Virus record (IMG/VR): IMGVR_UViG_3300045988_180769
Span: 41,942 to 105,941 of that record
Direction: 5' to 3' (one strand)
Length of the DNA stretch: 64,000 bases
DNA from: a virus
The notes beneath the pieces were generated by a model, which saw only the letters and a program-made list of their open reading frames with translations, had not been told where the DNA came from and did no database searches. Shown here piece by piece: positions 3,416 through 22,748 of the stretch (its first letter is position 1; every line of letters begins with the position of its first letter). Both the position numbers and the translations under genes were made by a program.

Positions 3416-3418
3416 CTC

Positions 3419-7200: not shown

Positions 7201-9706
7201 TCAACTTCAATACAACATTCACTGTTTTATTGAAACTATTTACAATTACAACTCCTTGTTGCAGATAATAACCATCTTTATTTACTGTCCAGTTATACGA
7301 TCCTGAAATTCTTACAAATTGAGCTTTTCCTTGTTCATCTGTATTAATTGATTCTGTACCAATAGTAATAAGAGCGTCTGCAAGTGGTTGATCGTTTATA
7401 TCAACAACTGTAAAATCGATTGTGTATCCTATTTGAATAAGATTAATCTCTTTTATAACTGGTTGGCCATTGATTGTTATTTGACCTTGTTGTGTATAAA
7501 ATTCTGTTTTTGTAACTTGCCAATTATATGTTCCATCAATCTCTGAAAATACAACTGTTCCATTGGCATCTGTTTGCAAAGTCATTCCATTGAATGTAAC
7601 ATTTGCTTTCGCAACTGGAAGGCCATTACTTCGAACAATAAATGTTGCATCATACTTAGGAACAGGATTAAACTGCACATCTATGATTGCATTATTATAA
7701 ATCGTAAAATCAGCTTCTTTTGTAACAAAGCCTTCTTTAACGACTTTATAGTGATATGTACCTGCTGCTAATACAAAACCTGTTCCCAATCCTTGAGCAT
7801 TCGTTACTCCTGTTTGAGGATCAATATCTGTACCAGTAACTAATATTGATGCACCTGAAACTGGATCGACACCATTTCGAACTCTAAATGTAACATTGTA
7901 ATATGGAATTTTTTCGAGCTCGATTTCAATATTGGTACTATCGATAATCTCAGCATTTCTTCTTATCGTATAATAATCTTCATACTCGACAACATATGGA
8001 TAAATTCCTGGAAACACATCAAATGTTGCAATACCACTTGAACTTGTATACTGAATCTTACCTCCAAAAGTGATCTTTACATTCTGCATCAATTCTTTTG
8101 TTACAGAGTCTCTCACATAGAATGTGACCACTCTTTCATAGGCCAAACCTGGAAGTTGAATATACTCAACAGAATCTTTTGTTACAATCAAAACTCCTTC
8201 AACTTCATTAAAGTTCTCTGCTGTCGCTTTATAATACCATTGCCCTCTTGGAAGTATAATAGATGCTTCACCATTTACATCTGTTTTTAACATTTGTCCA
8301 TTTATCTCAATAGAAGTGTTTGGTATATATTTATTTCTACTTGAAAACACTTTAAAAAGTACTCTATAAGTCTCTTCTCCAGTATATGGTCTAATCAATT
8401 CACTACCAAAAACATTCTTATATCCAATAAGATAGGTTTTTAAGAAGTTTTCTACAGAGAATTTCGCCTGATAAGAGTTATTCTTATAATATGCTGCAAT
8501 GATATCTCTTTCTCCAAGATAACCCTGAGAAAATGGCAAATACAATGGTTTTACTTTGAAGTCATATACATAAGCATAAGGTGAATTCGATTCTGGTGTT
8601 CTATCCTGAATAAATATTGGTGCTATGTATTTCATATTAGGAAGAATTGACAATGCTCTTCCAGTTGCGAAATTTAAACTTGGTGCATTGAGGAATTTCT
8701 CATTTGTTGATAAAAGAAGTCCTTTTATGTAATAATACATTCCTTCGTTTGGCAAATTCAAATATTCAGCAGTATGAAACCATATCGAATTTCCTGTGAT
8801 CTGTCCATTTTCGAGAACTCCCATTTCAAGTGGAGCTCCATCTGTTGTTTCATAACCTGCAACACCAAACTTTAAATTTTCATTAGTTGTTCCTGAAACT
8901 TTTACTTGTAATGAAATCTCATAGCTTAAATTAGGATCAATGAGAATAAGTTTACTTAAATCCTCTCTTCCATCAATACCAACCATTTGATTTCCAAAGA
9001 AAGTCATTGCATTAAAGATCTCACCATCGTCACCATTTTCATCTTGTGTCAAACTAATGTTTCCTGATGGAAATAATGGATAGTTGTCTAATGACTCTAC
9101 TCCTTTTGTATATTCGAATGCTTTTGTTACATTCATTACAGTATTCGTTCGATCATAAGTTGGAGAACTATGACCCATCGCCCATCCTGTACTTTCAGGT
9201 TTCAATAAAGCAAAGATAAATTCATCTAATGAATTGTATCTAATTAAGCGAAGGAGTTCTCCTAAGATTTCTCCTTCTTTGCTTATAATATCTAATCGTC
9301 CTCTTTTTGAATATTCCAGTAAATAATTATAGAAGAGATATTCCATTTGATCCTGACTATCTACAAGATTAGTCACAAGACCTCTGTTTTGAATAAAGAG
9401 TTCGAATAATATCTTGTTTGAATCAATTTCCTTATACTTTCGAGCATAGAGAACTGTTAATGCAAACATATGTGTTATCGTTCCCCAAAAAGCTCTAAAG
9501 TCAGGATTATCTTTCTTTTTGATGAAAGTTGGTAAAATTCCGATTCCTTCCAATTTAGCTAATACATTTTCAGCCCAACCCATAACAGCTTTATCATTTT
9601 CTTCGAAAAAGCGACTAAAGACCAGGTTATCATATATTGAAGAACTTGAAGTTATAAATAAGTCTCCACATGGATGTTCTTCTCTTGGATCAATTCTTTC
9701 TCTCAT
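4268..9706 (-). CDS. tail fibre / receptor-binding protein (1812 aa): unique N-terminal region, about 11 beta-sandwich repeats, PKD-like domain, BspA-type LRR C-terminus
   Basis: Repeated approx 85-aa units with the signature V.F.V..G.P..GA.VT.NG...TDANG.....G.Y.Y.V.K.GY (CarboxypepD_reg-like). VNWGDGSQTIGTISHTYGTMGTYTITF is PKD-like. About 11 F..C..L repeats (FANCSKLTEV, FFNCSSLKSV, FQDCSILTSI, FRRCTSLSAP, FKNCTNLRTI, FYNCSKLINA...) are typical of BspA/LRR_5. Confidence 0.8.
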   Translation of the reverse strand: MRERIDPREEHPCGDLFITSSSSIYDNLVFSRFFEENDKAVMGWAENVLAKLEGIGILPTFIKKKDNPDFRAFWGTITHMFALTVLYARKYKEIDSNKILFELFIQNRGLVTNLVDSQDQMEYLFYNYLLEYSKRGRLDIISKEGEILGELLRLIRYNSLDEFIFALLKPESTGWAMGHSSPTYDRTNTVMNVTKAFEYTKGVESLDNYPLFPSGNISLTQDENGDDGEIFNAMTFFGNQMVGIDGREDLSKLILIDPNLSYEISLQVKVSGTTNENLKFGVAGYETTDGAPLEMGVLENGQITGNSIWFHTAEYLNLPNEGMYYYIKGLLLSTNEKFLNAPSLNFATGRALSILPNMKYIAPIFIQDRTPESNSPYAYVYDFKVKPLYLPFSQGYLGERDIIAAYYKNNSYQAKFSVENFLKTYLIGYKNVFGSELIRPYTGEETYRVLFKVFSSRNKYIPNTSIEINGQMLKTDVNGEASIILPRGQWYYKATAENFNEVEGVLIVTKDSVEYIQLPGLAYERVVTFYVRDSVTKELMQNVKITFGGKIQYTSSSGIATFDVFPGIYPYVVEYEDYYTIRRNAEIIDSTNIEIELEKIPYYNVTFRVRNGVDPVSGASILVTGTDIDPQTGVTNAQGLGTGFVLAAGTYHYKVVKEGFVTKEADFTIYNNAIIDVQFNPVPKYDATFIVRSNGLPVAKANVTFNGMTLQTDANGTVVFSEIDGTYNWQVTKTEFYTQQGQITINGQPVIKEINLIQIGYTIDFTVVDINDQPLADALITIGTESINTDEQGKAQFVRISGSYNWTVNKDGYYLQQGVVIVNSFNKTVNVVLKLITYNIVFTVRIDGQPVVNQPVVVGSGSNEETLNTDGRGNVTFTKIPGAYPWSVTRTGYDIQTGTAVLTNQSIAIVVDLAKTRGTLTVTVVDNATSTAINNAAVTINGETKYSNINGIAGNWSLILGTWPWTASHTDYKPNSGNLNIVQGQNNYTIRLTEKDAVLYNVTFIAKEGQNTLEGASITIDGETTVATDANGRVVVQLAAGTYHYIAKYGTYFTDLESDFTVYNNMTVNLTFIRKTTTVTIFCYENYGGTQRAIQGASVNFNNTSSVSGADGNALFYNVPMSDNSLICTASKLPVYPSNTTFFTVNKATPIFPIELGAKYYSIIFWVRDDSGNYLSDVAIRCNGTLNYISSSGYCIFSSYPAGTAFSWQATKDAYQSQSGSGTVLEMDTTVNVVMPRNKCMVTYNVRNTAGQPISGVTVTDRISSGVTGTSGTVQWYVPAGDIYGYSATSPYYFTVNGQYTVGPTETSKTVYITMEDGAVIEIQTSTNGEPVSLPIQNTSVTGLGNLRVNWGDGSQTIGTISHTYGTMGTYTITFDFNDQTVQMIWGQPYPLVSFQTQLRRVVKWFTTKVSTSFTERAFANCSKLTEVASWTTGLISGSTDYFFFNCSSLKSVPSNQLSFGTSYISTYEGSNISGAINLTNYLGGYGVDNYYRTFAGTKITNVTGQISPSGQGCTVGSMFQDCSILTSIQFDINAINIINCIGMFRRCTSLSAPCQISFMSGSDCDATYFCAGTGITSLQSNSFIGNVNTAVFTQAFASTNLSQVSSNAFNVHATLSISWVQTFMDNKVLLNIDNIKLNDAILCQSTFEGSGVVTIPSNYFVSDKCASYVGCFKNCTNLRTIGSTIIPASSNSIQSVVEMFSGCINLTNMDKYPFGYSISNATITSGLFKTCLAYNNLFYNCSKLINAPYCELYNKYGVYLDLPMPFMFDPAFQLTFDGFPSMSQIAHTNCYYNCTSLTEYQDLHDQYPNWF
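5760..8370 (-). repeat. array of diverged approx 85-90-aa Ig/CarboxypepD_reg-like domain repeats inside the 1812-aa fibre (approximate bounds)
   Basis: Protein-level periodicity seen in the translation; the DNA copies are diverged. Confidence 0.6.
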
Positions 9707-9760: not shown

Positions 9761-12700
9761 TTACCAGATTAATTTATAACCATAAAAAGTTGTTGGTAAC
9801 TTTCCTGATATGGCTGGATTTGAATATGATGGGTATGCAAAAGAAATATAAGAATCTCCATTCCAAGATAAAACTTCATAAACAGATGGTCTATATACTT
9901 CTGATAATCCCCCTGCAACAGATTGATTATATGTACCCTCCATATTAATCTTATCTCCTGAGCCACCTAAAGATTTCCAAACTCCTTCTACATCGCTATA
10001 TTGCCAACATGAAAATGATTTTGGATTATTTCCTTCTGCATATGATGTATTTTGAAATAATGCTCCAAAACAACCTGCTGTTCCACTTATAAATAAAATC
10101 ATTTTTGTACCTGACTTTGAAAAAATAATTTCTTGAACATAATAAGAAGCCATTTGACTTCTTAAAAAAGCTGTATGTTCTGTGTTCATATAAGTTTGTG
10201 AATCAACAATAAACCCATTCGCATTAATAATAACATTTCCATTATAATAATAAGAATAAAGTCCTTTTGCATATCCAAATAAAGTTGGAGACCCTTTTGG
10301 AACAAAAAACATCCATGTACAATTAGAATTGATCCAACAATTAGCACCAAGATTTGCTTGAATTACAGAAACTTGATTATCATAGTATGAATAGTTTGTT
10401 GAATTGTTAACTTGTAATGTTCTATCGTATTTTATACAAGAGAGTTTCCATGCTGTTAGTGCTGAAGCCTGGTCCAAACCCAATGCTAAAGTCACAAAGT
10501 ATGTATTATCTTCGTAAGCCTTCATAAACTTATAATAAGAAGTTGTTGTATTCACACTACCACTCATGTTTATAAGCGTATTGGAGGGTACATAATTATG
10601 TAATGTTGCTACGAAAGATTTTGGTTCAAAAGAGGGTGATATGATTATTTCACCTGACTCCACTGTATTATGACCAAGTACTACACCACCAATGCAAGAA
10701 TAACTATTTAAACAGCCAAAATTACTAAAATAGTTATTTGGATTAGATGAAGTTCCGAATGTTGTATTTATTATTAATCGCGATAAACACTGTTGATGAT
10801 TGATATTATACATAAGTGTAAATGTTGCAATCGCAATTTTTGGCAAAGATTCCTGAGGTGATGCTGTGAACATATACAGAATACATTTTTCAAAAGTTCC
10901 CCAAGCACCAGATGTTTGGCTTGAAATCTCATGAAAAATCACTTTTGATTTCATTATATTCTGATCATACATAGATAAACTTAACTGTTCTGAATATTGT
11001 CCAATATTTGAAGTATTCACAGCTGCCATATCAAATTGTCCAAGATTAAAGAAACCTCGACTTGAATAAAAGTTAGCGCAACCAACTGATGGGATTTTAT
11101 TCGAAGGTAAATTATTATAATCAAGAGGAACTACATAGGCTGAACTGTTACTTGGTTGAGAATAATAAGGATTATAACTTGGACCAATTCCTGTATATCT
11201 TCCATAACTATATTGATTACCTGCTGCATAATCATACACTTTTTGCACCCAACCATTATTGCCAATATACATAGCTCTTACTTGTACACTTTGATCAATA
11301 TTAAAGTTCCATACAGCAGGATATGTTGTGGTAACTGGATAATCACCTGAACTTGCACCTGTGCCCCATCCAGTTACCAATCCTCCTAACTGTAAGTAAT
11401 AAGCTCCTGGTCTAATAACAATCGATACTGTACCTGCAGAATTCGTTGTTCCTGAATAATTTATTGTGCTTTTGTTCGTAGATAATTTTACTGCACAATT
11501 AGCTGCAACCAAAGATGTATTATCCTCTCTCACTACATTAAATGTAATCGTAGCTTCACTTGGTACGAGCTTAATTGTAAAGTTCGTAGTATTGGCATTA
11601 GTTGTCTCTAATGAATCATATTTGGAAGCACTTACTTGGTATCTGTTCGTAAGTCCTGATACATAAACTGTTGCCTGTCCTGATGCATTTGTTGTAACAG
11701 TTTGTGGTGCGTAACCACCTGAAAAGGCACCTGAAATTGCATTACTACCATTAAGACCATACATCTTTATTGTCGCTCCACTTACTGCAGCATTTGTTAA
11801 ACTGTTTTGAACAGTCACTACAATCGTCTTTATCGCAACAGATGTAAATGCATTTGATTCTGCAGTTGGAACATTACTGAAATTATATGTAGGGGTGATA
11901 ACATAAGGAGTTTCAGTTGTAGTTGCTCCTGTTACGAAGTAATTTGCAACTTTTGCCACTACTGTTGTCGCAATACCTGCAATCCAAGTATAAGTTCCTA
12001 AATAAGAAACAGCTTCACTATTGGAAAGAGTTACTGTAGTTGCAGTACCTGCTGTTGTATAAACAGGTTTCATATAAGTATTTATTGCCCACCAACCTAA
12101 CGCAGAACCATACTTAATTCTAAAAAACGATCCAATAGATCTTGTCAATCTTGAAGCATTGTGTGTTGATGCTGCAGTTGGCATATTAATGTTTGCACTA
12201 CCAGCGACCCAATAACTTGTTCCTCCTCCCCATCTTACTATGTATGTACCAGTAATCATTGGTCCAAAACTTACTTGACCTGATGAATTAGTACTTCCAC
12301 TGAATGTAATAGTAGAAAGAGTTGTATTTGTTAATGTAACTGGACAGCCATTTGTATTTCCTTTTATGACTCCTTGATATACATCTTTAATCGTAATCGT
12401 AATCGAAGAAGTTGCTTCACTCAATATAATATTTACTGGAGAAGCAGTACCTGCAGCTAATTGTGCAGATCCTGAAACATAATTTGTTTTTGAATAGGAA
12501 TAAGTTCTTGTTACAGCACATCCACTTCGTAACAAAGATACATTTCCTGAAGAGTCTGTTGTTCCAGTTTGACCCAACATTGTTAATGTAACACCACTTA
12601 AATTTCCACCATAGTTTTTACTCTTTACATTAAAAGTTATTCTTGTGGAAGCAGTTAAATTCATTGTCCAACCTTCACCTTCAGTAGTCCATGTATGAGT

Positions 12701-15700
12701 CTGTGTGGCATTGCTATAATAACTTGCATAGTTCTTAGGAGTATAAGTGTAAACAAGGCCTGCATAGACTGTATTTGATTTTTGACCATTTCCATCTAAC
12801 GTTAGATCTGCATTTCCTCCAGTACTTGTTCTCGACATCACAGTAGAAGCCAATCTATAACTATTCGATCCGATAACTTCATTCACTGTTAATGTTACAG
12901 TTACTGTTGTTCTCAGCATTGTAATCGTATATGGACTTGTCTGAGCTGCTGTCACAGTTCCTGAATAAGGATTGAAATATGTAGCTGTTCCTGTTAATGG
13001 TTTATCTAATCCACTTCGATAAAAGAAAACATATCCTTCTGATGTCGTTGTTTCTTTTTGACCAAAATAAACTAAATTCGCCCCAGGCAACACTGTACTC
13101 GCTGGTACATTTGAAACAACATTTACTCTTATTGAATTATTACATTTCAAACTTATCAATGCCACCTGACCTGACGAAGTAAAGGTAATCGCATTATCTG
13201 GATTACTATAATAATTTCGATAATCAACTACACCAAAAGTAATTGGAGTTCCAAGATAACAAGCGAAAGTTACATTTCCTGCTGTATCTAATGTCAATGG
13301 ACTTGTAGAAGCTGCAGGTGTGAAAGTCATCTTCTTTGATGGATAAACAGATACTGGGTTGTACGAACCATTACTTGGCGTTGCCTTTCTTGTTAATGTC
13401 ACTGCTGAACCACCACTATTATTATAGATAGTGATATTATTATTCCCATTTTGGAAAGAATAGTCAGAATGACGAGATACCATCTTATCATATGTACATG
13501 CTCTCTGGATAATGGTTCCTGCTGTAGAACTTGTAAAATTATTTCCTGTTATATCATAAACAGTTGCCAATCCTAATTGCCACGCCACAGGTCTTGTTGT
13601 TCCTTGTAAAACAAAGAAGAATGTTGATGAAAATGTTCCAGTAGAGTATGTTCTTATATAATACATGTATAAACCCCAATCTCCTGTACCTGCAGTTCCA
13701 GTTAACCATCGTGATACTGCACTATCTCCAATTGCATTCGTATGAAAAGAAATACTATATCCAGTAGGAACTTTTGCATAAAAATATGCTACATATTCTT
13801 TATTTGCAGCAGTTGGGAATGAATATGTAAATCCTCCTAAACCAGGACTTGTACTTCCACTTGCTGCAGTCGCAATTTCCAAACAATAACCACTATGAAC
13901 TAATGTAGCTTCTTGTACACTTAAAGTGACATTCGCAGATAAACGAGAAAGAACAACATTCACTGTTCCAGTAGTTCCTGAACCAATCTGCCCAGATGTT
14001 CCTGTATGATATGTAGCTGAAACTTGATATTCTCTTCCTGGAACGCCTCTATAGAAACTTACATTACCACTCGAATCAGTCACACCAGCCTGTCCAAAGA
14101 AAGTTACATTCGCACCACTCAAATTAGTCCCTGATGGAATATTTGATTTAATATTGAATGTAATTCGAGCTGTAATATTCAATGTCATTTTGAAAGTTTG
14201 ATTCGCAGCAGTGAAAGTATAAGTTTGTGTTGGATTGCTATACCACGAAGGCGCTTCTTGTACTGTAAATGTTGTTGGCGTTCCAAGATATGCTGTAAAT
14301 GATACAGTACTGTTTGCATTCAATGTAACACTGCTTCCACTTGTAAGTGGTGAAACAGTTATAGGTCGATTTGGGTAACTATAATCTGTTGTTGCCCCTG
14401 GATATCTTTCAACCACCTGTAAAGTTACAGTAGCAGTCTTTCTTGTCAATACAATATTGAATGGAGATGCAGAAGTTGATAATATTGTTCCGCTATAACC
14501 ATTTATATAAGAACTGTCGCCTACAGTTATTGACTTATCCAATCCACTTCTATAGAAAGATGCGTTTCCTGAAGCATCTGTGGTTTTCGTTTGATTGAAA
14601 TATGTCACGCTCATATTTGCAGCGACATTTCCAGTTGGAACATTTACTTTAGTATTTACCACAATCTGTTTTGCACAAGTCAATGACATCGTCTGTGATT
14701 GACCTTCACTTGTATATGTGAATGATTGAGATGGATTACTATAAAAATCAGTATTTTCTGTTACACTAAATGTTATCGCTGTTCCAAGAATACCACTGAA
14801 TGAAACATTTCCTGAAGAATCTGTTGTAATATTTCCAGTAGATGAACCTGCTGTCCATTTAATCGTTTTACCAGCGTAAGCAAATGTTCCTGTGACTCCT
14901 GGAATTGTTTCTACTACTTTCAATACAATAGGAGTTGTTGCTCTTATCATTGTAATATTGAAAGGGGAAGATTGTGCTGCAGTCAGGGTCGTTGATAATG
15001 TATCAAAATATGTCGCAGAAGAAGAAAGGCTTTGATTCAAACCACTTCTTAAGAAAGTCGCATTTCCAGATGCATCTGTTGTCTTTGTCTGATGGAAATA
15101 CGATACAGATGCTCCTTGAATATTTGTACTCGCAGGAATATTTGATTTAACATTTACCACTACATTTGCAGAACAAGTTAAATTCATCACCCATGACTGT
15201 CCTGATGCTGTGAATGTATGAGCTTGACTGGCATTACTGTAATAGTTCGAATAATTCGTTGGAACAAATGTATAAGAAATTCCAAGATAATAAGTACCAC
15301 TGACTAATTGTCCATTAGCGTTTAGATCATGAGAAGATCCTGTTATCCCTGGTCTTGAAATTGTAATTTTGCTATTCGCCAATGGATAGTTTGTTCCTGA
15401 AATCGTTTCATTTACTGTTAAAAGCGCAGTAACAGCAATTCTTGTCAATGTCACTGTAAGTGGTGATGTTTGAGCTGCTGTAATTGTTCCAGAATAAGGA
15501 TTGAAGTAAGAACCATTACTTACACTTAATCCTTGTGTTAATCCACTTCGATATAATGAAACTGTACCATCGCTCGCTGCTGTTCCTGTTTGATTGAAAT
15601 ATGTAACTGTTGCTCCACCTAAATTAGGATCGGTTACATATATGTCTGTTATGGCTTTAATCGTTATTTTTGCTGAACAAGTTAAATTCATTGCAAACGA

Positions 15701-18700
15701 TTGACCTGCTGCAGTATATGTATGAGATTGAGTTGGATTGGAATAAAACTCAGGGTGCAATACAACTGCGAAACTTATTGGAATGCCTAAGTATGCATCA
15801 AAAGATGCTGTACCTGTCGCGCTTAATGTTAATGTCCCATTTCCTGCTGCAGATGTATAATTGATCGTCATTCCATTATAAGCAAACGATCCAGTCACTC
15901 CTGGAATAACCTCTGCAACACTAATTGTTACTGTTTGCTTAATTCTATATAGCAATACATTTACTGGAGAAGTAGTTGTAGGAGTTATAGTTCCTTGTTT
16001 AGTATCGTATCCACTATCATCTACACTATAATCTTTTGTTAAAGCAGAACGATATAAAACAGCGTTTCCTGATGCATTCGTTGTTACTTGTTGTGAATTC
16101 CAAGTTACTGTTGCTCCTTGTAAATTAGTACCAGCATATTGATCTTTTACATTAAATGTGATTTGAGCTGATACGTTCAAATTCATTGGCCAAATATATC
16201 CATCCTCTGTCCAAGTATAAGTTTGTGTTGGATTTGAATAAAAGTTTGGATAAGCATCTGTTGTAAATGTATATGGTAGCGTTTTGATCAATGTCATATT
16301 TGCATATCCATTCTCATCTAAGGTAATTGTAATTTCACCTGCCTTAGATGTCATTGTAAGAGTTTGGTCTGCTAAATAAGCACTTCCATTTGAACCAAAA
16401 ATCTCTGACACCTGAATACCAGCATTAATCAATTCATACTTAACCTCAACATCAATAACTGTTCCAGTAGAAGTTTGAGGATGAAAGAATGTTCCAGTTG
16501 TGATTTCACCAGCCAAAACTGCGTAACTGTAATTTCCAGTAAATACATCTGGAATAATTGTTAAACCATTTACATCAGTTGTTCCTTCATAAACAAGTGT
16601 TGACTTATCTTCATTGGTAATTCTTACTATGATTCCTTCTGGTGCTATAATACCTCCTGTAGAAACATTGAATGTAACTGGAAAGACTTGTGCTTTCAAT
16701 GTAATATCCATTCTTGTTTCACTTCCAGTAGGAGTAAATGTCAATGTCGTTGTATCATAATATTGAGCGCTTACTGTATAATTCATCGATATTGGTGAAA
16801 GATACATATAAACTATTCCATCACTATCTGTAGTTTGAGTTTGATCAACACTCATTCCTTTGAAGACAACAGTTGCTCCTGTTAATTCTCCATATTGATC
16901 ACTTGTAACATAAACAGGTATTCTTTTTGAACAAGTATATGTTAAAATAGGAGTTTTGGCATCTGTGTTATTAAGTTTTACTACTGCTCCATTACCTTCA
17001 TAAAAAACAACTGGTTGTACCTCAAATCTCTCAGGCAAACCAGCATAAATTGTTTTTGTGAATTGACCACTCGCGTTGGTCGTAACATTGGGTCCTGATG
17101 AAGTACCATTTTCATTGTAATAACATGCTAATACAAGACCAGCTTTGACAGGATTCGCTGTGGACGATATTAATGGCAGAATTTCTTTTACTGTCGCTGT
17201 GATAGAGAACGATCTTCTCGTAGCAATAATGCTCGTTGTTTTTTCTGTAGGTAGATAGATATCTTTTGTTGCGACCTCATAATTTCCATTTGCATCTCCA
17301 ACAGTGATTTTATAATTTCCAGGTGGAATATTAAATGTTCCATTTCCAAGAGTATTCAATACACCATTGGCATTCGTTGTCCCTGTAAATGTATATTGTT
17401 GACTTGGTGTCCCACCCCAAGTACTTGATACTGTTACAGGACAAGATTCTGCAACATGATTATATGGAACAGTATTACTTACTGTTAGATTAAATGTGAT
17501 CTGTTCATATGTTAATACGAGATCAATATAATCATTCGTCAATGGAGGAGTAAATGTTCCAGTCAATACATTATGATCGGGGAATGTACAAGTGTAACCC
17601 ATTGTTAATGGAGTAATATATACTTTCGCTGAACCATCTGATCCTGATGTAACAGTTTGATCTAAACTCATTCCTGTTACAACTATCTCTGCACCTTCCA
17701 ATGGTCTTAATGTATTTGCCTGTTTTACTCGAAGTTCTAATTGTTTAGAAGCTGTGATTTGCATATCAACAGGAAAATTTCCTTCGAAATTCCATGACAT
17801 TATAAATAATCCATTGTTTGTATAGAAACCAGCTTCTGTGATTGTAAATTCATAAGAAACTCCTGGAGTTATATCTGGAAAAATTGCTCCATTTTCATTA
17901 GTAGTATATTGCTTTGTTGTTCCATCGACAGTATTCTTTGCAGTTACCTTTAATCCTGATTTAACTGGCATAAAACGAGAAGACTTTTGTTGAGTCAACT
18001 TTATATTTCCAGTTGATTGACTAACTTCTGTTGTAACTGTTAAATCAATATAACATTCTCTTGGTGTCGCGTCCCTTTTTAGTTCAACATTTTCAGCTAC
18101 ATTTATCTGAGTTCCTTCTAAAGTAGCAAATGGACTGGGTATGGGGATAATGTTTATATCTAATCGAGCACCACCTAACAATAACCAATCGTATTCGACA
18201 TTCAAACCTCCATCTTCTGGTCTTCTAAAAGTTTGAACCAAATCTCTCATGTCAAAAGAAATAGCACTGTTTGGAACAAGAATACTTTCAGGCATTCTTA
18301 AAACATAATAAAAACCATCATTTCCTAAGGCTTCTACTGATTTTACTCCTGATACTTTAACTGTATCTTCATCTCCACTTACTCCTGGAATAAACTCTGT
18401 TAAATCAACTTCTGTATTAATGTCTTTTCTTTTCATTGTAAATGGCACCTCAATATCTTTGAGCTTTTCTAATGTAACATCTTGTGTCACTGAAATATAC
18501 CATTTGTGAGTTGCAGTCCAAGTATAATCATCAGCCTCTGCTGATAAGGTTACTTGACCTAAAGCATTCGTTACTCCTGAAGTAACTTTCTCCATTGTAC
18601 CTTTATTTACAAGATCAATGTTCACTCCTTCAATTACTTCTCCAGTTAATTGATCTGTGGCAATGAAAGTTACTTCTGTATCTCGAATTTGAATATAAAT

Positions 18701-21061
18701 TGTTTCAACTACATCCTGATCTTTAATAGTAACTGTTCCAGTATATCTCTTATAATTAGGATTCGTCACTACATATGTATATGTTCCATTTCCCAACATC
18801 ACTGATGTAACTCCATTGACATTAGTGATCGCTGTCTCTCCATTGATTGATAATTGTGCTCCTTGAATGAAATTTCCATTCTCAATATCTCTAACTGTCA
18901 ATCTAAAAGTATAATATGCCTTTCCTAACTTTACAATCTGTGATATTGACTCTCCATCTACAACCAGTCTATTGGAATAAGTCATGTATCCTGTTTTGAA
19001 AATAGAATAATCATAAATACCATCAGGTAAACTAATAATTGCAACACCATTTTCATCTGCAATATATGTTGCATTATTTATCGAAACAGTAGCTCCAGGA
19101 ATAACTGTTTCAGTCTCTTCATCTAATATCGTGAATTTGATTTCATAAGGAACTGCAGCCATTTCAATCACAACGCAGTTTGGTTCTTCACCAACTACTG
19201 TAATGTTTTGAGTTTTCCTTTGATATCCCTCTTTTAATACAGTTACTTCGTAATTACCAACCTCAAGTCCTATTTCAGCCTGTCCTTCTTCGTTGGTTAC
19301 TTCGTTTTGATTGACTACAGAAATATTCGCTTGTGGAACATAAACACTTCTTGTTCTATCTATCACTGCAAAACTTACTGTAAGTGTTTCTAAAAACATT
19401 CTTTCGAATATTTCTAATGGTTGATTTTCAACTGTCAGAACACTTTCAATTGTTTTAAATCCAGCCTTAGTTATTGTATAACTATATGTTCCAGGTTCGA
19501 GCTCAACTTTTGCTATTCCATCAGGATCTGTTGTTATTGTATAAATACCAACATTTATCGAAGCACCTTCCATTGGCGCGTTTCCTTCGTAAACAGTAAA
19601 TACGACTTCATAAGGAGTCGCTGTAAAATCATTTACTGTTACAAAAACAGGACCATTTAATACAACAAATTCACCAGTCTTTTGAGTCCAATTTGCTTTT
19701 GTTAAGCTAAAACTATATTCACCATTTTCGAGAAGAATATTCGCTGTTCCATTAGCATCTGTGATAATTACTTTATTACCTATTGTAATGTAAGCACCAG
19801 GAACTGGAATATTTTTTAAATTTGTTACAGTAAAAGATACAAGATATTTTTGAGATACAATAGTTGTTTGTGTTCCTTTATAAATGTCATTATCACTCGC
19901 AGGATAAAAGATGTTCGAAAGATCAGAACCAGAATCATATAAAATATTCCCTTCCAGATCTCTCATTCTAAATCCTTTGATTCTTGGTAACATATTCAAA
20001 GGTACTTCTTCATCATAATAGGGAAAGAAATATTCATCAGGAACATACTTAACACCATCTGATGATTTCACTACTTGTAAAAGATCGTCCCACTGAACAG
20101 TTTTTCCTGGCTCCCAAAATCTAAAATCCAAATATTTGGTCATTGCAATTTGAATATTCTTTCTTACATCTGCAATGTCTGTATCAGGATAAAGTTCAAC
20201 TCTAAAGTCTACACCTTCTTCTCCACCAACATACATCCATTTTGCATTCTCAAGAACAACACCAATTGTTTCTCCTGACAAATTTAATTCTGTTAAACCA
20301 AAATAAGGAGTTGCTTGTTCGAGGAGTGTTTCAAGTTCGTCATCAGTAAAAAACGATCCATTCTGTGTAACAAGATAGATATGTGTTTTACCATCCTCAC
20401 CAAGTCCAACATTCATCACTCTCAAAATTCTACTATCTAAATCCTGGAATATTTGTGTCCAAGATTCCATTGTTTCTTCTGAAAGCTTATTGTTGTAATT
20501 TATAATTCTGTTTCTAAATGTCTCATCATCCTCATAATCACGACCTCCAATAGCTGCATATTCATTTGTACACTCAATATGTGTCAATGGTCTTGGAGAT
20601 ACTTGAGTTATACTGTTTGCTTCTACATTAGTTGCTGAACCAGTAATAACACTCTTTACACTTACATATCCATATCCTGAATTATCAACTGTATAAGCCT
20701 GATCAACAATAAATCGTATACCATTCTTTGAAATGAAATATGTTCCAACTGCATAAATTGTTCCAGGTTGTGCAAAAACTCGTACATAAGTAGATGATCC
20801 TAAAGCCTGTTTTCTTGGACTTACACCAAACAATGCTGCAGACTTATCCAGATAATCTCCAGTCGCTGATTTTGGAAATATCTGCGCTTCTACGATACTA
20901 ATGTCTTTAAGTGCTTTTTGTGCAACCTTTGCTGTACCAAAAGCAACTCCATTCAAGATCGATCCATCAGCAATGTTGGACACCTTATCTGTCTTATTTA
21001 AAAACATTTCGATCCACAAGTTTTTTAAATTTGCGATCGTACTACTTGTTTTTGTAATCAT
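9761..21061 (-). CDS. giant baseplate wedge J-like protein fused to a modular tail fibre (3766 aa)
   Basis: N-terminal approx 390 aa fit Baseplate_J (P2 gpJ / T4 gp6 class): ATGDYLDKSAALFGVSPRKQALGSSTYVRVFAQPGTIYAVGTYF...VTGSATNVEANSITQV...NEYAAIGGRDYEDDETFRNRI. The rest is a long series of beta-sandwich repeats, seven approx 165-aa tandem units, an inserted jelly-roll-like domain, and a unique approx 700-aa C-terminus. ATG checked; one uninterrupted 11.3 kb ORF. Confidence 0.85.
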   Translation of the reverse strand: MITKTSSTIANLKNLWIEMFLNKTDKVSNIADGSILNGVAFGTAKVAQKALKDISIVEAQIFPKSATGDYLDKSAALFGVSPRKQALGSSTYVRVFAQPGTIYAVGTYFISKNGIRFIVDQAYTVDNSGYGYVSVKSVITGSATNVEANSITQVSPRPLTHIECTNEYAAIGGRDYEDDETFRNRIINYNNKLSEETMESWTQIFQDLDSRILRVMNVGLGEDGKTHIYLVTQNGSFFTDDELETLLEQATPYFGLTELNLSGETIGVVLENAKWMYVGGEEGVDFRVELYPDTDIADVRKNIQIAMTKYLDFRFWEPGKTVQWDDLLQVVKSSDGVKYVPDEYFFPYYDEEVPLNMLPRIKGFRMRDLEGNILYDSGSDLSNIFYPASDNDIYKGTQTTIVSQKYLVSFTVTNLKNIPVPGAYITIGNKVIITDANGTANILLENGEYSFSLTKANWTQKTGEFVVLNGPVFVTVNDFTATPYEVVFTVYEGNAPMEGASINVGIYTITTDPDGIAKVELEPGTYSYTITKAGFKTIESVLTVENQPLEIFERMFLETLTVSFAVIDRTRSVYVPQANISVVNQNEVTNEEGQAEIGLEVGNYEVTVLKEGYQRKTQNITVVGEEPNCVVIEMAAVPYEIKFTILDEETETVIPGATVSINNATYIADENGVAIISLPDGIYDYSIFKTGYMTYSNRLVVDGESISQIVKLGKAYYTFRLTVRDIENGNFIQGAQLSINGETAITNVNGVTSVMLGNGTYTYVVTNPNYKRYTGTVTIKDQDVVETIYIQIRDTEVTFIATDQLTGEVIEGVNIDLVNKGTMEKVTSGVTNALGQVTLSAEADDYTWTATHKWYISVTQDVTLEKLKDIEVPFTMKRKDINTEVDLTEFIPGVSGDEDTVKVSGVKSVEALGNDGFYYVLRMPESILVPNSAISFDMRDLVQTFRRPEDGGLNVEYDWLLLGGARLDINIIPIPSPFATLEGTQINVAENVELKRDATPRECYIDLTVTTEVSQSTGNIKLTQQKSSRFMPVKSGLKVTAKNTVDGTTKQYTTNENGAIFPDITPGVSYEFTITEAGFYTNNGLFIMSWNFEGNFPVDMQITASKQLELRVKQANTLRPLEGAEIVVTGMSLDQTVTSGSDGSAKVYITPLTMGYTCTFPDHNVLTGTFTPPLTNDYIDLVLTYEQITFNLTVSNTVPYNHVAESCPVTVSSTWGGTPSQQYTFTGTTNANGVLNTLGNGTFNIPPGNYKITVGDANGNYEVATKDIYLPTEKTTSIIATRRSFSITATVKEILPLISSTANPVKAGLVLACYYNENGTSSGPNVTTNASGQFTKTIYAGLPERFEVQPVVFYEGNGAVVKLNNTDAKTPILTYTCSKRIPVYVTSDQYGELTGATVVFKGMSVDQTQTTDSDGIVYMYLSPISMNYTVSAQYYDTTTLTFTPTGSETRMDITLKAQVFPVTFNVSTGGIIAPEGIIVRITNEDKSTLVYEGTTDVNGLTIIPDVFTGNYSYAVLAGEITTGTFFHPQTSTGTVIDVEVKYELINAGIQVSEIFGSNGSAYLADQTLTMTSKAGEITITLDENGYANMTLIKTLPYTFTTDAYPNFYSNPTQTYTWTEDGYIWPMNLNVSAQITFNVKDQYAGTNLQGATVTWNSQQVTTNASGNAVLYRSALTKDYSVDDSGYDTKQGTITPTTTSPVNVLLYRIKQTVTISVAEVIPGVTGSFAYNGMTINYTSAAGNGTLTLSATGTASFDAYLGIPISFAVVLHPEFYSNPTQSHTYTAAGQSFAMNLTCSAKITIKAITDIYVTDPNLGGATVTYFNQTGTAASDGTVSLYRSGLTQGLSVSNGSYFNPYSGTITAAQTSPLTVTLTRIAVTALLTVNETISGTNYPLANSKITISRPGITGSSHDLNANGQLVSGTYYLGISYTFVPTNYSNYYSNASQAHTFTASGQSWVMNLTCSANVVVNVKSNIPASTNIQGASVSYFHQTKTTDASGNATFLRSGLNQSLSSSATYFDTLSTTLTAAQSSPFNITMIRATTPIVLKVVETIPGVTGTFAYAGKTIKWTAGSSTGNITTDSSGNVSFSGILGTAITFSVTENTDFYSNPSQSFTYTSEGQSQTMSLTCAKQIVVNTKVNVPTGNVAANMSVTYFNQTKTTDASGNASFYRSGLDKSITVGDSSYINGYSGTILSTSASPFNIVLTRKTATVTLQVVERYPGATTDYSYPNRPITVSPLTSGSSVTLNANSTVSFTAYLGTPTTFTVQEAPSWYSNPTQTYTFTAANQTFKMTLNITARITFNIKSNIPSGTNLSGANVTFFGQAGVTDSSGNVSFYRGVPGREYQVSATYHTGTSGQIGSGTTGTVNVVLSRLSANVTLSVQEATLVHSGYCLEIATAASGSTSPGLGGFTYSFPTAANKEYVAYFYAKVPTGYSISFHTNAIGDSAVSRWLTGTAGTGDWGLYMYYIRTYSTGTFSSTFFFVLQGTTRPVAWQLGLATVYDITGNNFTSSTAGTIIQRACTYDKMVSRHSDYSFQNGNNNITIYNNSGGSAVTLTRKATPSNGSYNPVSVYPSKKMTFTPAASTSPLTLDTAGNVTFACYLGTPITFGVVDYRNYYSNPDNAITFTSSGQVALISLKCNNSIRVNVVSNVPASTVLPGANLVYFGQKETTTSEGYVFFYRSGLDKPLTGTATYFNPYSGTVTAAQTSPYTITMLRTTVTVTLTVNEVIGSNSYRLASTVMSRTSTGGNADLTLDGNGQKSNTVYAGLVYTYTPKNYASYYSNATQTHTWTTEGEGWTMNLTASTRITFNVKSKNYGGNLSGVTLTMLGQTGTTDSSGNVSLLRSGCAVTRTYSYSKTNYVSGSAQLAAGTASPVNIILSEATSSITITIKDVYQGVIKGNTNGCPVTLTNTTLSTITFSGSTNSSGQVSFGPMITGTYIVRWGGGTSYWVAGSANINMPTAASTHNASRLTRSIGSFFRIKYGSALGWWAINTYMKPVYTTAGTATTVTLSNSEAVSYLGTYTWIAGIATTVVAKVANYFVTGATTTETPYVITPTYNFSNVPTAESNAFTSVAIKTIVVTVQNSLTNAAVSGATIKMYGLNGSNAISGAFSGGYAPQTVTTNASGQATVYVSGLTNRYQVSASKYDSLETTNANTTNFTIKLVPSEATITFNVVREDNTSLVAANCAVKLSTNKSTINYSGTTNSAGTVSIVIRPGAYYLQLGGLVTGWGTGASSGDYPVTTTYPAVWNFNIDQSVQVRAMYIGNNGWVQKVYDYAAGNQYSYGRYTGIGPSYNPYYSQPSNSSAYVVPLDYNNLPSNKIPSVGCANFYSSRGFFNLGQFDMAAVNTSNIGQYSEQLSLSMYDQNIMKSKVIFHEISSQTSGAWGTFEKCILYMFTASPQESLPKIAIATFTLMYNINHQQCLSRLIINTTFGTSSNPNNYFSNFGCLNSYSCIGGVVLGHNTVESGEIIISPSFEPKSFVATLHNYVPSNTLINMSGSVNTTTSYYKFMKAYEDNTYFVTLALGLDQASALTAWKLSCIKYDRTLQVNNSTNYSYYDNQVSVIQANLGANCWINSNCTWMFFVPKGSPTLFGYAKGLYSYYYNGNVIINANGFIVDSQTYMNTEHTAFLRSQMASYYVQEIIFSKSGTKMILFISGTAGCFGALFQNTSYAEGNNPKSFSCWQYSDVEGVWKSLGGSGDKINMEGTYNQSVAGGLSEVYRPSVYEVLSWNGDSYISFAYPSYSNPAISGKLPTTFYGYKLIW
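12416..16423 (-). repeat. seven tandem approx 165-aa two-domain units (anchor motif [FWY]YSN[PA].Q..T[WFY]T), with an approx 178-aa foreign domain inserted between units 5 and 6
   Basis: Anchor codons located at about 16240, 15745, 15241, 14743, 14242, 13210 and 12718. Spacings are 495, 504, 498, 501, 1032 and 492 nt. Confidence 0.8.
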
Positions 21062-21066
21062 AGCAA

Positions 21067-21969
21067 TTATATTGGAACATTAATTAAAAAATCTTCTTTT
21101 GTTACTGTAACAGCTTTCACTTTCATGAAAACACTATCGTCTTTTTTCACCAAATCAATTAATTCAGCACTCGCCCATCTATTGTCTCTCTGGAACATAT
21201 TCATCAATGCTTTAAAAATAATAGGGTATTGAATTGCATTGGTTGTTGTGCCTATAAATTCATTGGGGAGTCCATAATCTTTAAATTCTGGAATGCAACC
21301 TTTTAGAGCTTCAAGTACAATTGTTAAGGCCTGATCCATCGATTCGTGATACTTAATTGCTCTCAAATCATTATTCTCAAAACTAAAGTTCATATCTATA
21401 TCTTTCCCAAGAATATTTTGATCCACAAGAGTATCAACTACATTATCAACATAATTCACACCCATGTTTTTCAAATTAACAAAGAAAGTATTACTACCTT
21501 CACCTGCCACATAATCCTCCTCAATTATATATTGAGGAATAGTTATATCCATCCAATCATCTTCAGGTTCATTTGATTCCATTTGTTCAGAAACTGATTC
21601 AAATGTTTCTCCTGTCCTGAGTTGTTTGGCCATCTGTAATGTATTTGTTCTTCCAACTGTAGCACTTCTTAACCATCTGTCAGAGTTCTTTATCGTTAGA
21701 AGTTTTGTTTCAATCTCAGAAAAGTCTTCCAATAGCTCCCACATAGAAAGATCGTCCAACTTATTTTCATGAAGTTGAAATAGTGGCTCGATTATTCTTA
21801 CTTGTGAAATGAGTTTATCTAATTCATGGAATGACTTTGCATCTATTTCTCCTCCCTGATAATAATCAACAATGTAAGGATAGTAGTTGTTGCAAAAGTC
21901 TACATATGATTGGAAAAACTCTTTTATGTTATAACCAGTCACTGATTTGAATTTTTCAAACATATCCAT
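21067..21969 (-). CDS. putative baseplate wedge protein (300 aa; function by position only)
   Basis: Immediately upstream of the Baseplate_J-like gene; ATG checked. Confidence 0.5.
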   Translation of the reverse strand: MDMFEKFKSVTGYNIKEFFQSYVDFCNNYYPYIVDYYQGGEIDAKSFHELDKLISQVRIIEPLFQLHENKLDDLSMWELLEDFSEIETKLLTIKNSDRWLRSATVGRTNTLQMAKQLRTGETFESVSEQMESNEPEDDWMDITIPQYIIEEDYVAGEGSNTFFVNLKNMGVNYVDNVVDTLVDQNILGKDIDMNFSFENNDLRAIKYHESMDQALTIVLEALKGCIPEFKDYGLPNEFIGTTTNAIQYPIIFKALMNMFQRDNRWASAELIDLVKKDDSVFMKVKAVTVTKEDFLINVPI

Positions 21970-21971: not shown

Positions 21972-22748
21972 TTATAATATATTAGCGATTGATGCAGCTA
22001 AATCATTCACACCTTTTTGAACAACACCTGCTGCACAGATTTTTGTTAATGCTGTTTTTGCTTTCGCTGAACCAGCCACAGCATCGAGTGGAGCGATTGC
22101 TATCATTGTTAAATTGTAGTCCCAAATCATGTTCTTATTCAAGTTTTGAGAAAACGATATTCCTGATGGAGGAACGACAACCAAGTAACTTTCTCCAAGA
22201 GCGAGATTATAAAAATACAATCTTAATGGCAATCCAGTTTTATCTACACCACTACTTTTTGATATAATACCTTGTAACATTTTGATACATCCAAATCCAG
22301 TTTTGATACCAGCATCAAAGGCTGGTGTTTGAAGACCAAAAGTACTTTTTCCAGAAATGGATGTCAATGAATATTTTCCTGCTGATAAACTATAACCAGC
22401 TCCTGTCACACTACTCATTCCTCCACCAATAGACAACAATATTTTAAATGTCCTACCAAAATCACCTCTTATATTGATTTCTTGTGGAGTAAAAGTTGGA
22501 GTACTCATTACTGTGATACCACCAGCTGTGTTTCTAATTGTTTCTCTTTTAGGATCTGTTTTTGTAATGTTGTTTGGATTTATTGGAAATGTGAAAAAGT
22601 CTATTGTATTGCCTTGTGAATCAGCTAATTCCAGAGTACAAAGATACACCTCAAAATCATTTGGATATTGAGATGCTAAAATTGCTCTACCTGCTGTTTC
22701 AATAATACCTGCTGCAGTTTTGATCGCAGCACTCGCTATATTTGCCAT
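21972..22748 (-). CDS. putative baseplate / tube-initiator-like protein (258 aa)
   Basis: Position in the baseplate block. FPINPNNITKTDPKRETIRNTAGGITVMSTP...INIRGDFG is reminiscent of contractile-injection-system tube-like N-domains (weak). Confidence 0.5.
   Translation of the reverse strand: MANIASAAIKTAAGIIETAGRAILASQYPNDFEVYLCTLELADSQGNTIDFFTFPINPNNITKTDPKRETIRNTAGGITVMSTPTFTPQEINIRGDFGRTFKILLSIGGGMSSVTGAGYSLSAGKYSLTSISGKSTFGLQTPAFDAGIKTGFGCIKMLQGIISKSSGVDKTGLPLRLYFYNLALGESYLVVVPPSGISFSQNLNKNMIWDYNLTMIAIAPLDAVAGSAKAKTALTKICAAGVVQKGVNDLAASIANIL

Follow-up and report, generated by a model that had tools for sequence, protein, structure and literature searches.

Baseplate wedge proteins and fibres are usually treated as separate parts that meet at a docking interface, the fibre being a trimer. 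In phage Mu, each wedge has two copies of gp47, and a trimeric fibre, encoded separately, attaches to BW3/gp48 and not to the J protein (PMC11915804). Known phage members of this wedge family are ~290–660 aa long and fibre-less. Here we analyse a 64,000-nt stretch of a virus genome (hereafter the window; positions 41,942 to 105,941 of the IMG/VR virus record IMGVR_UViG_3300045988_180769) in which a protein of this family instead carries ~3,380 additional C-terminal residues. Our main reading, to which we assign a probability of roughly 0.7, is that this protein is a J-fused appendage, with a stalk of ~2,850 residues and a specificity tip of ~495 residues, built into the wedge. A search of the literature on J-fibre fusions, CarboxypepD_reg domains in phage fibres and giant fibres returned no description of this architecture.

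An earlier sequence-only reading of the window had reported an uninterrupted ORF of 11.3 kb, and this is confirmed: the ORF starts with ATG and continues for 3766 codons with no internal stop (Table 1). A DNA-level repeat search found no significant tandem array inside the ORF, and the repeats that it does contain share only 60–80% identity with one another. The exact 3766-aa protein is also encoded on 4–5 further contigs, one of them a human-gut contig of 106,012 nt, and complete orthologous ORFs of 3196–3783 aa are intact at 39 of 40 IMG/VR loci. Relative to the closest relative, dN/dS ranges from 0.03 to 0.15 across the J domain and the stalk (>3,000 codons), with values of 0.03 for the J domain, 0.07 for the middle stalk and 0.15 for the distal stalk. 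The giant ORF is a real single gene and is under selection. Together with the 1812-aa gene that follows, it occupies 16,740 nt, or 26% of the window, consistent with the earlier estimate of more than a quarter.

A frameshift splitting the ORF, which the sequence-only reading had named as evidence against itself, is absent from the window sequence and present in 2 of ~45 related contigs. In L004, one nucleotide is missing from a run of nine A (A9), which splits the ORF into 621 and 3141 aa, and in L061 a 4-nt deletion yields a 599-aa product; the window gene has neither. Both frameshifts sit in the third or fourth repeat, leaving J with only 2–3 repeats. They could mean that the extension is dispensable, or they could be sequencing errors. 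Three apparent breaks in a further relative, L008, were first taken for frameshifts and proved to be N10 scaffolding gaps.

Table 1 Features of the giant gene and its neighbours in the window (positions in nt of the window; residues of the respective protein).
Feature	Position	Strand	Residues	Remarks
Giant gene	9761..21061	-	3766 aa	J-fused giant appendage protein; 407.5 kDa, pI 5.1
Baseplate_J / BW2 / gp6-like wedge (triplex) domain	19898..21061	-	1-388	Pfam, PHROG, PDB sequence matches, AF2 model
Linker from J to first repeat	19850..19897	-	389-404	pLDDT <50 at residues 386-403; fused homologues run on where stand-alone ones stop
Proximal stalk, six CarboxypepD_reg-like (transthyretin-like) beta-sandwich domains	18416..19849	-	405-882	PF13620; iterative HMM E=1e-20 to 1e-22
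Island 1, conserved non-repeat domain	17972..18415	-	883-1030	Same position in 54/54 related loci tested
Middle stalk, ~15 further beta-sandwich repeats, partly in ~500-nt super-repeats	13925..17971	-	1031-2379	Iterative HMM; aa 1289-1377 uncalled by HMM
Insert domain	13349..13924	-	2380-2571	Same position in 40 related loci; missing from L010/L012/L013 group
Distal stalk, ~7 more repeats	11294..13348	-	2572-3256	Iterative HMM; aa 2889-3076 uncalled by HMM
Stalk/tip junction, QSVQVRAMYIGNNGW	11249..11293	-	3257-3271	Positional homologue of the relatives' inverted-repeat recombination site; single copy in window
Hypervariable tip half	10364..11248	-	3272-3566	DNA alignment break; 36% aa identity to L060
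Conserved C-terminal tip half and stop codon	9761..10363	-	3567-3766	Common to all tip cassettes; predicted beta-propeller-like (weak)
Second appendage gene	4268..9706	-	1812 aa	Starts only 54 nt after giant ORF stop
1812-aa protein, conserved N-terminal domain	8372..9706	-	1-445	Homologues in phages with stand-alone J
1812-aa protein, 11 CarboxypepD_reg-like repeats	5744..8371	-	446-1321	HMM
1812-aa protein, Cys-rich C-terminal region	4268..5743	-		
Upstream neighbour, putative baseplate protein	21067..21969	-	300 aa	PHROG_975 'baseplate protein', E=4e-5
Putative tail tube initiator	21972..22748	-	258 aa	Pfam PF23980, 43.2 bits vs cut-off 27

The N-terminus had been assigned to a gpJ/gp6-type wedge protein, and Pfam, PHROG, PDB sequence matches and the AF2 fold all agree with this assignment. 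The Pfam family Baseplate_J (PF04865) matches aa 68–192 with 59.8 bits against a cut-off of 21.1 (E=3e-16), and PHROG_6 'baseplate wedge subunit' matches aa 51–338 (E=2e-31), while the sequence matches in the PDB are Mu gp47, diffocin TRI-2 and phiCD508 gp65. With the AF2 model of the domain (pLDDT 74) as query, Foldseek retrieves the wedge proteins of Mu (gp47), phiCD508, A-1(L), diffocin, Milano, phi812, Pa193, T4 (gp6), AFP, PVC and pyocin R2 at a probability of 1.00 and E 2e-19 to 1e-7 over 360–410 aligned columns; the TM-scores are modest (0.3–0.43) because the relative domain orientation differs. Residues 1–388 are thus a true member of the Baseplate_J / BW2-triplex / gp6-like family. 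The extent of approximately 390 aa given earlier is also accurate, as stand-alone J homologues end at window residue 388 in the alignment. From there a linker of ~16 residues, disordered in the AF2 model, leads to the first repeat.

The long region downstream of the linker was described as beta-sandwich repeats and unique domains covalently joined to J, and the HMM annotation and structure prediction that had been proposed as checks bear this out, identifying PF13620 in addition to PF04865 and the wedge fold. Pfam CarboxypepD_reg (PF13620) matches six stretches of the giant protein with 122 bits against a cut-off of 32.3, and an iterative self-trained HMM calls at least 27 transthyretin-like units of ~83 aa, this count being a lower bound. 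In the AF2 model, the first repeat resembles the carboxypeptidase D/N regulatory domain and the SusC NTE domain (TMt 0.62–0.75). The CarboxypepD_reg domain is the N-terminal extension of the SusC transporters of Bacteroidota. Neither island 1 nor the insert at aa 2380–2571 gave a usable Pfam match (E<=1) or a significant match in the PDB sequence search, and Pfam at the same threshold returned nothing usable for aa 2889–3076. By eye only, the insert looks jelly-roll- or carbohydrate-binding-module-like.

The term fibre, as used in the sequence-only reading, holds in part. The protein does provide a very long appendage with an exchangeable tip, but the classical trimeric features were looked for and not found: Pfam and PHROG scans of the whole protein and of its segments detected no trimerisation, coiled-coil, triple beta-helix, collar or intramolecular-chaperone domain. 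Because neither a trimerisation motif nor a fibre chaperone was detected, the appendage may not be a classical fibre. The transthyretin-like string looks more like the stalk of a monomeric beads-on-a-string adhesin.

The stalk ends at a sharp boundary. Identity to P0187/L008 falls from ~97% to ~40% straight after the junction peptide, which ends at aa 3271, and from ~aa 3310 onwards the tip DNA cannot be aligned with that of L004 or L008, with flanks that are 78–91% identical. In the comparison with L060, the low identity of the hypervariable half adjoins a stalk of 95–98% identity, and MT835500 carries the same J and stalk chassis with a different, glycine-rich tip. The conserved half of the tip has homologues at E=6e-24 to 1e-4 and contains invariant W, K, G, Y, F, W, Y and P residues. 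The AF2 model of the tip has a mean pLDDT of 53 and is confident only over the last ~260 residues, in the C-terminal half; its top Foldseek matches in the PDB are all beta-propellers, but at E ~1e-3 and TM 0.25–0.37, and a fold search against BFVD was uninformative (rmsd 14–56 Å). By sequence, Pfam at E<=1 gave no usable match for the tip, whether to the glycan-active propeller families (GH43, PL24, sialidase-like) or to others, and the PDB no significant one.

In relatives of the gene, perfect inverted repeats of 32–78 nt flank the expressed tip together with a silent, inverted, in-frame alternative tip. The 65-nt inverted repeat of L010 encodes QSITLYALYVSSSGWFAPVTS at the position equivalent to the window junction. 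Expressed and silent cassettes lie between inverted repeats in all seven relative loci with enough downstream sequence (7/7), and the inversion architecture is probably present in ~37 relatives, at least 7 of which are fully covered. At least 22 cassette types occur, each expressed or silent depending on the genome. Four reciprocal pairs of inversion isomers were found at the DNA level, with collinear flanks and an inverted segment of 2.5–2.6 kb at 95–99% identity; both tip orientations therefore occur in nature. The invertible segment of the relatives contains no chaperone gene. Tip homologues of 400–490 aa that appeared to be stand-alone fibre proteins were rejected as such, being ORFs with internal Met starts inside the silent inverted cassettes, as seen from L010.

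An inversion switch in the window itself was considered and rejected, since the junction is single-copy, just 54 nt lie between the stop of the giant ORF and the next gene, and the window contains no second junction copy or long inverted repeat. Pfam likewise identified no site-specific recombinase (Gin/Cin-like or tyrosine invertase) among the ~37 window proteins. The same absence of an inverted-repeat switch is seen in L004, L008 and L060. Most relatives invert the tip, and the window lineage lacks the switch. The tip is exchangeable and becomes hypervariable at a single fixed junction. Because identity breaks sharply at aa 3271, part of the tip DNA is unalignable and relatives carry swapped or inverted tips, we infer that it determines specificity. 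The adsorption role proposed earlier gains support from the same hypervariability and from the swapping of the tip by DNA inversion in relatives.

The fused J proteins form one clade, sister to a clade with a 390-aa J, and the fusion boundary coincides exactly with the C-terminus of the stand-alone protein. As judged from these sequence relationships, the fusion is a derived state that arose once, in one clade. J is stand-alone, at 390–406 aa, in cultured relatives and in hundreds of metagenomic ones, and the fibre of Mu is separate, so the arrangement does depart from the usual one, as had been claimed. The nearest cultured phages, Bacteroides phages DAC16/19/20/22/23 and SJC03 and Chryseobacterium phage MA9V-3, have a homologous J (38–40% identity) and a syntenic tail module; on the other hand, their J is stand-alone (399–406 aa) and similarity at the DNA level is absent. 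When 21 kb surrounding the gene were compared with 50,697 phage records by megablast, no match was returned; tblastn of the tip was likewise negative, and tblastn of the proximal stalk matched only two unannotated faecal contigs. IMG/VR contains 49 contigs of the fused clade, many of them genomes of ~105–108 kb, of which the two appendage genes make up ~16%. The phage is a contractile-tailed phage of the human gut with a genome of ~106 kb, and its host probably belongs to the Bacteroidota.

The giant extension has no counterpart in phages with a stand-alone J, whereas the 1812-aa neighbour does. The N-terminal domain of the latter shares 33% identity with an 808-aa protein found in these phages and is related to the gene directly after J in Chryseobacterium phage MA9V-3. 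The 1812-aa protein has a weak PKD match, but for its N-terminal and C-terminal parts Pfam gave nothing usable at E<=1; its N-terminus has no significant PDB sequence match. Kinship of the N-terminal domain to gpI/gp48 (BW3) found no backing from the PDB, searched with a four-homologue profile, or from PHROG, and no gp25/W-like or gpI/gp48-like protein is recognisable by sequence. By its position, the N-terminal domain is a BW3 candidate.

A different role for the extension has to be weighed against these data. It could be a general adherence tentacle and not the primary receptor-binding protein: its tandem Ig-like or transthyretin-like domains would bind mucin or capsule glycans weakly and keep the phage near its hosts, while another baseplate protein, for example the 1812-aa one, would set host specificity. 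A parallel is the role of Hoc in the bacteriophage-adherence-to-mucus (BAM) model, beta-sandwich domains like those of the stalk are typical of adhesins and decoration proteins, and the human-gut source fits such a role, as do the second large appendage gene with its own distinct C-terminal region and the truncation of the extension by a frameshift in two relatives. However, the hypervariable part is the distal tip, which in relatives is switched by a dedicated inversion system, and switched tips are a hallmark of host-range determinants, for example S/S' of Mu. The strong purifying selection on the stalk also speaks against this explanation, and we consider it unlikely.

Less probable still is that the gene encodes a polyprotein, from which J is cleaved so that in the mature virion J has its normal 45 kDa and the fibre is a protein of its own. 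The disordered linker lies exactly at the C-terminus of stand-alone J, and the two frameshifted relatives show that a gene can encode just a short product with J, but these frameshifts fall after 2–3 repeats and not at the linker. Moreover, Pfam and PHROG found no protease, autocleavage or intramolecular-chaperone domain anywhere in the protein, and a cleaved fibre would have no recognisable domain for attachment to the baseplate. Finally, the repetitive protein and the frameshifts in L004 and L061 might suggest that the long ORF is an artefact of assembly or annotation, arising from chimeric or collapsed repeats or from a frameshift that was missed. This is already effectively refuted because the repeats diverge at the DNA level, the identical protein recurs on other contigs, all but one of the 40 orthologues are intact, dN/dS is low over J and stalk and the L008 breaks are scaffold gaps.

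In the preferred reading of a J-fused appendage, the J part would be incorporated in the baseplate wedge, from which up to 12 appendages would emerge. The number is deduced from canonical wedges holding two J (12 per virion) and from the lack of a second J gene in the tail module; a J-family HMM detected no paralogue among the 209 six-frame ORFs of the 64-kb window (42 kb of the genome lies outside it). In the matching PDB entries, each baseplate comprises 12 J-like chains. A point against is that the two positions of J in a wedge, inner and outer, are not equivalent, so that an extension of 3,380 aa may not fit on both. Each extended appendage may have a length on the order of 100 nm, and its tip would recognise the host surface, probably a glycan. 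Since wedge and appendage form one covalent chain, binding of a receptor could be relayed straight to the baseplate component that sets off contraction, bypassing any interface at which a separate fibre would dock. In Anabaena Cis11, the extended C-terminus lies at the periphery and contacts the fibre-like Cis13, and a C-terminal sfGFP fusion still forms foci (PMC8894136). J-like proteins thus tolerate C-terminal additions, and these lie near the fibres.

We tentatively extend this model to the whole clade, in a form that is more likely wrong than right. Its members would carry monomeric tentacles of ~100 nm that are the wedge protein itself, at most 12 per baseplate with two non-equivalent copies per wedge, in place of a trimeric fibre held non-covalently on an adaptor. 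Binding by a swappable tip would be wired mechanically to the contraction-triggering triplex, with most members toggling between two tips by inversion and the window lineage having one fixed tip. Two further ideas of the sequence-only reading are speculation: a branched adsorption apparatus, and adaptation to a thick glycan or capsule layer, which is plausible in view of the human-gut origin, the Bacteroides-phage relatives and the weakly predicted beta-propeller-like fold of the tip.

When the wedge protein is also a 407-kDa appendage, it has to be asked how many copies a baseplate can hold, how the appendages are reconciled with its symmetry and how binding is signalled to the contraction trigger; the fused clade provides a natural test case for the structural biology of wedge and fibre. 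The clade is common in human-gut viromes. The two-state invertible tip of most members, with its at least 22 cassette types, represents a host-range switch that can be read from sequence, tracked in metagenomes and used for linking phages to hosts. For engineering, tips could be exchanged at the stalk/tip junction, whose fixed position makes it a ready-made site.

By sequence and predicted fold, aa 1–388 belong to the same family of simple contractile baseplates as Mu gp47, P2 gpJ, R-pyocin PA0618, diffocin TRI-2, phiCD508 gp65, T4 gp6 and T6SS TssF, and the gene lies in the tail/baseplate module, after the putative tube-initiator and baseplate-protein genes. J-like cores with extra domains are known from Anabaena Cis11 (1227 aa), AlgoCIS (7aeb_G, 1011 aa) and PVC (9qgl_A, 887 aa), all of which are fold matches of our J model. 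Their additions, however, are cage, stabilising or fibre-contact domains of at most ~800 aa and not a long repeat stalk bearing an exchangeable tip, and all three belong to contractile injection systems rather than phages. Beads-on-a-string bacterial adhesins and T4 Hoc-type Ig-like decoration proteins likewise contain small beta-sandwich domains in long tandem rows, but the array of the giant protein is anchored in the baseplate wedge rather than in the capsid or cell wall, and ends in a hypervariable tip. Programmed gene-altering inversions have been surveyed (PMC9881135), and the relatives of the giant gene resemble the Mu G segment (S/U versus S'/U') and the P1 C segment in their layout, with a constant part, then an inverted repeat and the expressed tip, and a silent second tip that is inverted and in frame. 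The window gene differs from these in having neither the second repeat arm nor the silent cassette.

The sequence-only reading had described one uninterrupted ORF with a Baseplate_J N-terminus, and the ORF listing, the translation, Pfam and PHROG all bear this out. Window 9761..21061 (-) is a single ATG-initiated ORF of 3766 aa (407.5 kDa) without internal stop; a second appendage gene, of 1812 aa (4268..9706 (-)), begins 54 nt downstream, and nearly all window genes lie on the - strand, at a G+C of ~33%. Pfam Baseplate_J matches aa 68-192 (59.8 bits, cut-off 21.1) and PHROG_6 'baseplate wedge subunit' matches aa 51-338 (E=2e-31). The largest internal direct repeats of the giant gene are only 60-80% identical in DNA and TRF reports no meaningful tandem array inside it, so that repeats are unlikely to have collapsed or expanded in assembly. 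A protein identical over all 3766 aa is also encoded by 4-5 other contigs, one of which (106,012 nt, from a human-gut metagenome) has the same neighbours around the gene.

We scanned IMG/VR with a peptide across the J C-terminus, the linker and the first repeat, which yielded 49 loci at 73-90% identity, all covering the junction; the ORF is complete in 40 of them and intact in 39 of these 40, at 3196-3783 aa. Relative to L060, the closest of these loci, dN/dS is 0.03 in J, 0.06-0.15 in the stalk segments and 0.46-0.56 in the tip, which shows that the whole giant ORF is translated and constrained. The dS between the same two sequences is strongly mosaic: J and the proximal stalk have ~1.0-1.2, the middle and distal stalk 0.05-0.18 and the tip 0.65-1.3, a sign that lineages have recombined within the gene. 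Counts of long J fusions from our exhaustive and word-indexed search libraries are unreliable, and very long proteins may be absent there: when searched with the tip, neither retrieved the window's 3766-aa protein, which the encoding-contig index does contain, or the 3141-aa protein of the related locus L004.

The gene is interrupted in two relatives. A 1-nt deletion in an A9 run of L004, where the window reads CAAAGGAAAAC, shifts the frame at ~11850 (homologous to window ~19200) and divides the gene into 621 and 3141 aa, and a 4-nt deletion at ~10785 in L061 leaves 599 aa. In both, the J-containing ORF ends after 2-3 repeats and a large ORF lies downstream; these frameshifts may reflect errors in sequencing, viable truncation mutants or variation caused by slippage. 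Three apparent breaks in the related scaffold L008 were ruled out as frameshifts and are N10 gaps.

Behind the J domain, an HMM trained iteratively on the giant protein recognizes 27 repeat units of ~83 aa, as well as 11 in the 1812-aa neighbour. Thr, Ser, Asn and Gly are abundant in the stalk, and Pfam CarboxypepD_reg scores 122 bits; in the AF2 model the first repeat resembles the carboxypeptidase D/N transthyretin-like domain and the SusC N-terminal extension. Two non-repeat segments, island 1 and the insert domain, have no relatives in Pfam or PDB, and their positions are conserved in 54 and 40 related loci, respectively. An AF2 model of aa 1-480 (42 sequences, pLDDT 74) matches in Foldseek essentially every solved wedge or triplex protein, with E down to 2e-19, including Mu gp47, phiCD508, cyanophage A-1(L), diffocin TRI-2, Milano, phi812, Pa193, T4 gp6, AFP, PVC and pyocin R2. 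Sequence and predicted fold thus both assign the N-terminus to the Baseplate_J/BW2 family.

Segments of the giant protein and repeat-bracketed tip segments in related loci
Feature	Sequence	Coordinates	Remark
J domain	giant protein	aa 1-388	
Linker	giant protein	aa 389-404	model pLDDT <50
Six repeats	giant protein	aa 405-882	
Island 1	giant protein	aa 883-1030	no assigned family
~15 repeats	giant protein	aa 1031-2379	
Insert domain	giant protein	aa 2380-2571	no assigned family
~7 repeats and a stretch not called by the HMM	giant protein	aa 2572-3256	
Junction peptide	giant protein	aa 3257-3271	
Tip	giant protein	aa 3272-3766	
Repeat-bracketed segment	L010	7770-10676	
Repeat-bracketed segment	L012	7770-10682	
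Repeat-bracketed segment	L013	7524-10370	
Repeat-bracketed segments	L019-L021, L035, L037, L038, L040	~17240-20465	

Portal, capsid and tube-initiator genes lie upstream of the giant gene, and the window phage is a contractile-tailed virus. Between the portal and capsid regions of the structural module, a 583-aa protein (window 42467-44218 (-)) carries a NUDIX domain (E=3e-17). We found no relative at the DNA level among cultured phages. The J domain is 38-40% identical to J of the Bacteroides thetaiotaomicron phages DAC16/19/20/22/23 and SJC03 and, likewise, of Chryseobacterium phage MA9V-3, all of which encode J as a protein of its own, 399-406 aa long, whereas in the window it is fused. Hundreds of metagenomic homologues (390-400 aa, ~59% identity) come from ~105-kb contigs in which lysis genes, an 808-aa protein and a 457-aa fibre-like protein follow J. 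Stand-alone J ends in '...FYPA', corresponding to window residue 388, and the fused proteins extend from exactly there; the extension has no counterpart in phages with stand-alone J. In a neighbour-joining tree the fused proteins (window, L004, the 2696-aa MT835500 protein and the fragments P0002-P0007) group in a single clade whose sister is the 390-aa clade, so the fusion is a single derived event. MT835500 (L003 15001-23091) is a more distant fused member (J 63% identical, 15 detectable repeats) that shares the chassis of the window protein but has a different, glycine-rich C-terminal tip.

Over residues 1-445 the 1812-aa neighbour shares 33% identity with the 808-aa protein of the stand-alone-J phages, and this part is also related to the gene directly after J in MA9V-3. 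By this homology the neighbour is the orthologue, in expanded form, of the ancestral fibre attached to the baseplate, and what the clade has innovated is the J extension; the two stalks are ~25% identical to each other. The C-terminal ~430 aa of the neighbour (window 4268-5743 (-)) are Cys-rich and, by eye, BspA-type leucine-rich-repeat-like (FxNCxxL motifs), with no LRR family matched in Pfam, and a weak PKD match lies just upstream (E=8e-4, below cut-off). In stand-alone-J phages a lysis cassette with holin PF05105, DUF5675 and DUF6549 separates J from the fibre gene (L005 11252-15231 compared with window 4268-9706), whereas in the window the 1812-aa gene directly follows the fusion and no lysis gene was recognised nearby. 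Elsewhere, a 657-aa window protein (45234-47207 (-)) matches LAGLIDADG_3, and the terminase large subunit carries Hint in L007 (30480-31301), a contig encoding the identical 3766-aa protein, and intein and LAGLIDADG domains in L005 (20019-21173), so these phages carry inteins or homing endonucleases in core genes.

The tip is hypervariable. P0187, a fragment of L008, is ~97% identical to the window protein up to residue 3271 and ~40% beyond, and DNA for ~aa 3310-3567 is unalignable among the window, L004 and L008, with flanks 78-91% identical. When 1.84 billion representatives were searched exhaustively, the last ~200 residues had homologues at E down to 6e-24. In an AF2 model of the tip, confidence is confined to the conserved C-terminal half, and the model's top PDB matches are all beta-propellers (GH43, PL24 lyase, sialidase, DPP) at weak scores (E ~1e-3, TM 0.25-0.37), so that a glycan-binding or glycan-cleaving propeller is a hypothesis.

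Tip homologues of 400-490 aa were rejected as separate genes: they are ORFs with internal Met starts within silent inverted cassettes. In L010, a tip-homologous ORF lies tail-to-tail with the giant gene, and the two arms of a perfect inverted repeat of 65 nt (7770-7834 and 10612-10676) enclose this ORF together with the gene's last 474 codons. The repeat encodes QSITLYALYVSSSGWFAPVTS in frame at both sides, so inversion would make the silent cassette a seamless continuation of the stalk. L012 and L013 are built in this way too, with perfect 66-nt repeats. Perfect repeats, 32-78 nt long, are present in all seven IMG/VR loci whose downstream sequence reaches at least 1.84 kb; each segment holds the last ~470 codons of the giant-gene orthologue and a silent, inverted, in-frame alternative tip. 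In the remaining ~30 loci the ~1.3 kb available downstream is one opposite-strand open frame. Clustering expressed and silent tips together at ≥85% identity gives at least 22 tip types, every one of which is the expressed tip of some genomes and the silent tip of others, and four pairs are reciprocal at the DNA level (L031/L032, L018/L033, L047/L048, L016/L051), with collinear flanks of 83-90% identity around an inverted 2.5-2.6-kb segment of 95-99% identity. The invertible tip of these relatives is a probable host-range switch like the Mu G segment, a likeness that applies to their inverted-repeat-flanked cassettes and not to the window. There, the junction peptide QSVQVRAMYIGNNGW (nt 11249-11293) occupies the place homologous to the repeat but is single copy, with neither a silent cassette nor a long inverted repeat, so the tip is fixed in this lineage; L004, L008 and L060 likewise lack a silent cassette. 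Even so, it is exactly at the junction that the window tip begins to diverge from the tips of its closest relatives.

The giant protein runs from a J core through a linker and a stalk to an exchangeable tip, and its gene is the only J gene within the tail module. Simple baseplates comprise six wedges, each with two J-like subunits (inner and outer), one BW1 and one BW3, on which a trimeric fibre docks (PMC11915804); the matching PDB entries contain 12 J-like chains per baseplate. J-like proteins tolerate C-terminal additions, for example Cis11 and a Cis11-sfGFP fusion, and these are peripheral, near the fibres (PMC8894136). The baseplate of the window phage would carry the 3,380-aa extension in up to 12 projecting copies, each possibly ~100 nm long (~30 beta-sandwich domains of 3.5-4 nm). 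The tip would bind a host surface structure and its engagement would be relayed to the wedge without a separate docking interface, while the 1812-aa protein may form a second, shorter appendage set with a different tip. The appendage putatively acts as a receptor-binding fibre does, but no trimerisation or chaperone module, the one structural mark of classical fibres that could be looked for, was found in the giant protein.

No description of a J-fused giant appendage was found in the literature searched, and none among cultured phages. Some 50 gut viral genomes have conserved this architecture, and most of them carry a probable host-range switch that can be read from their sequence. Among our fold matches the longest J-like proteins are Anabaena Cis11 (1227 aa), AlgoCIS (1011 aa) and PVC (887 aa); their extra parts are cage or contact domains, whereas that of the window protein is a giant appendage.
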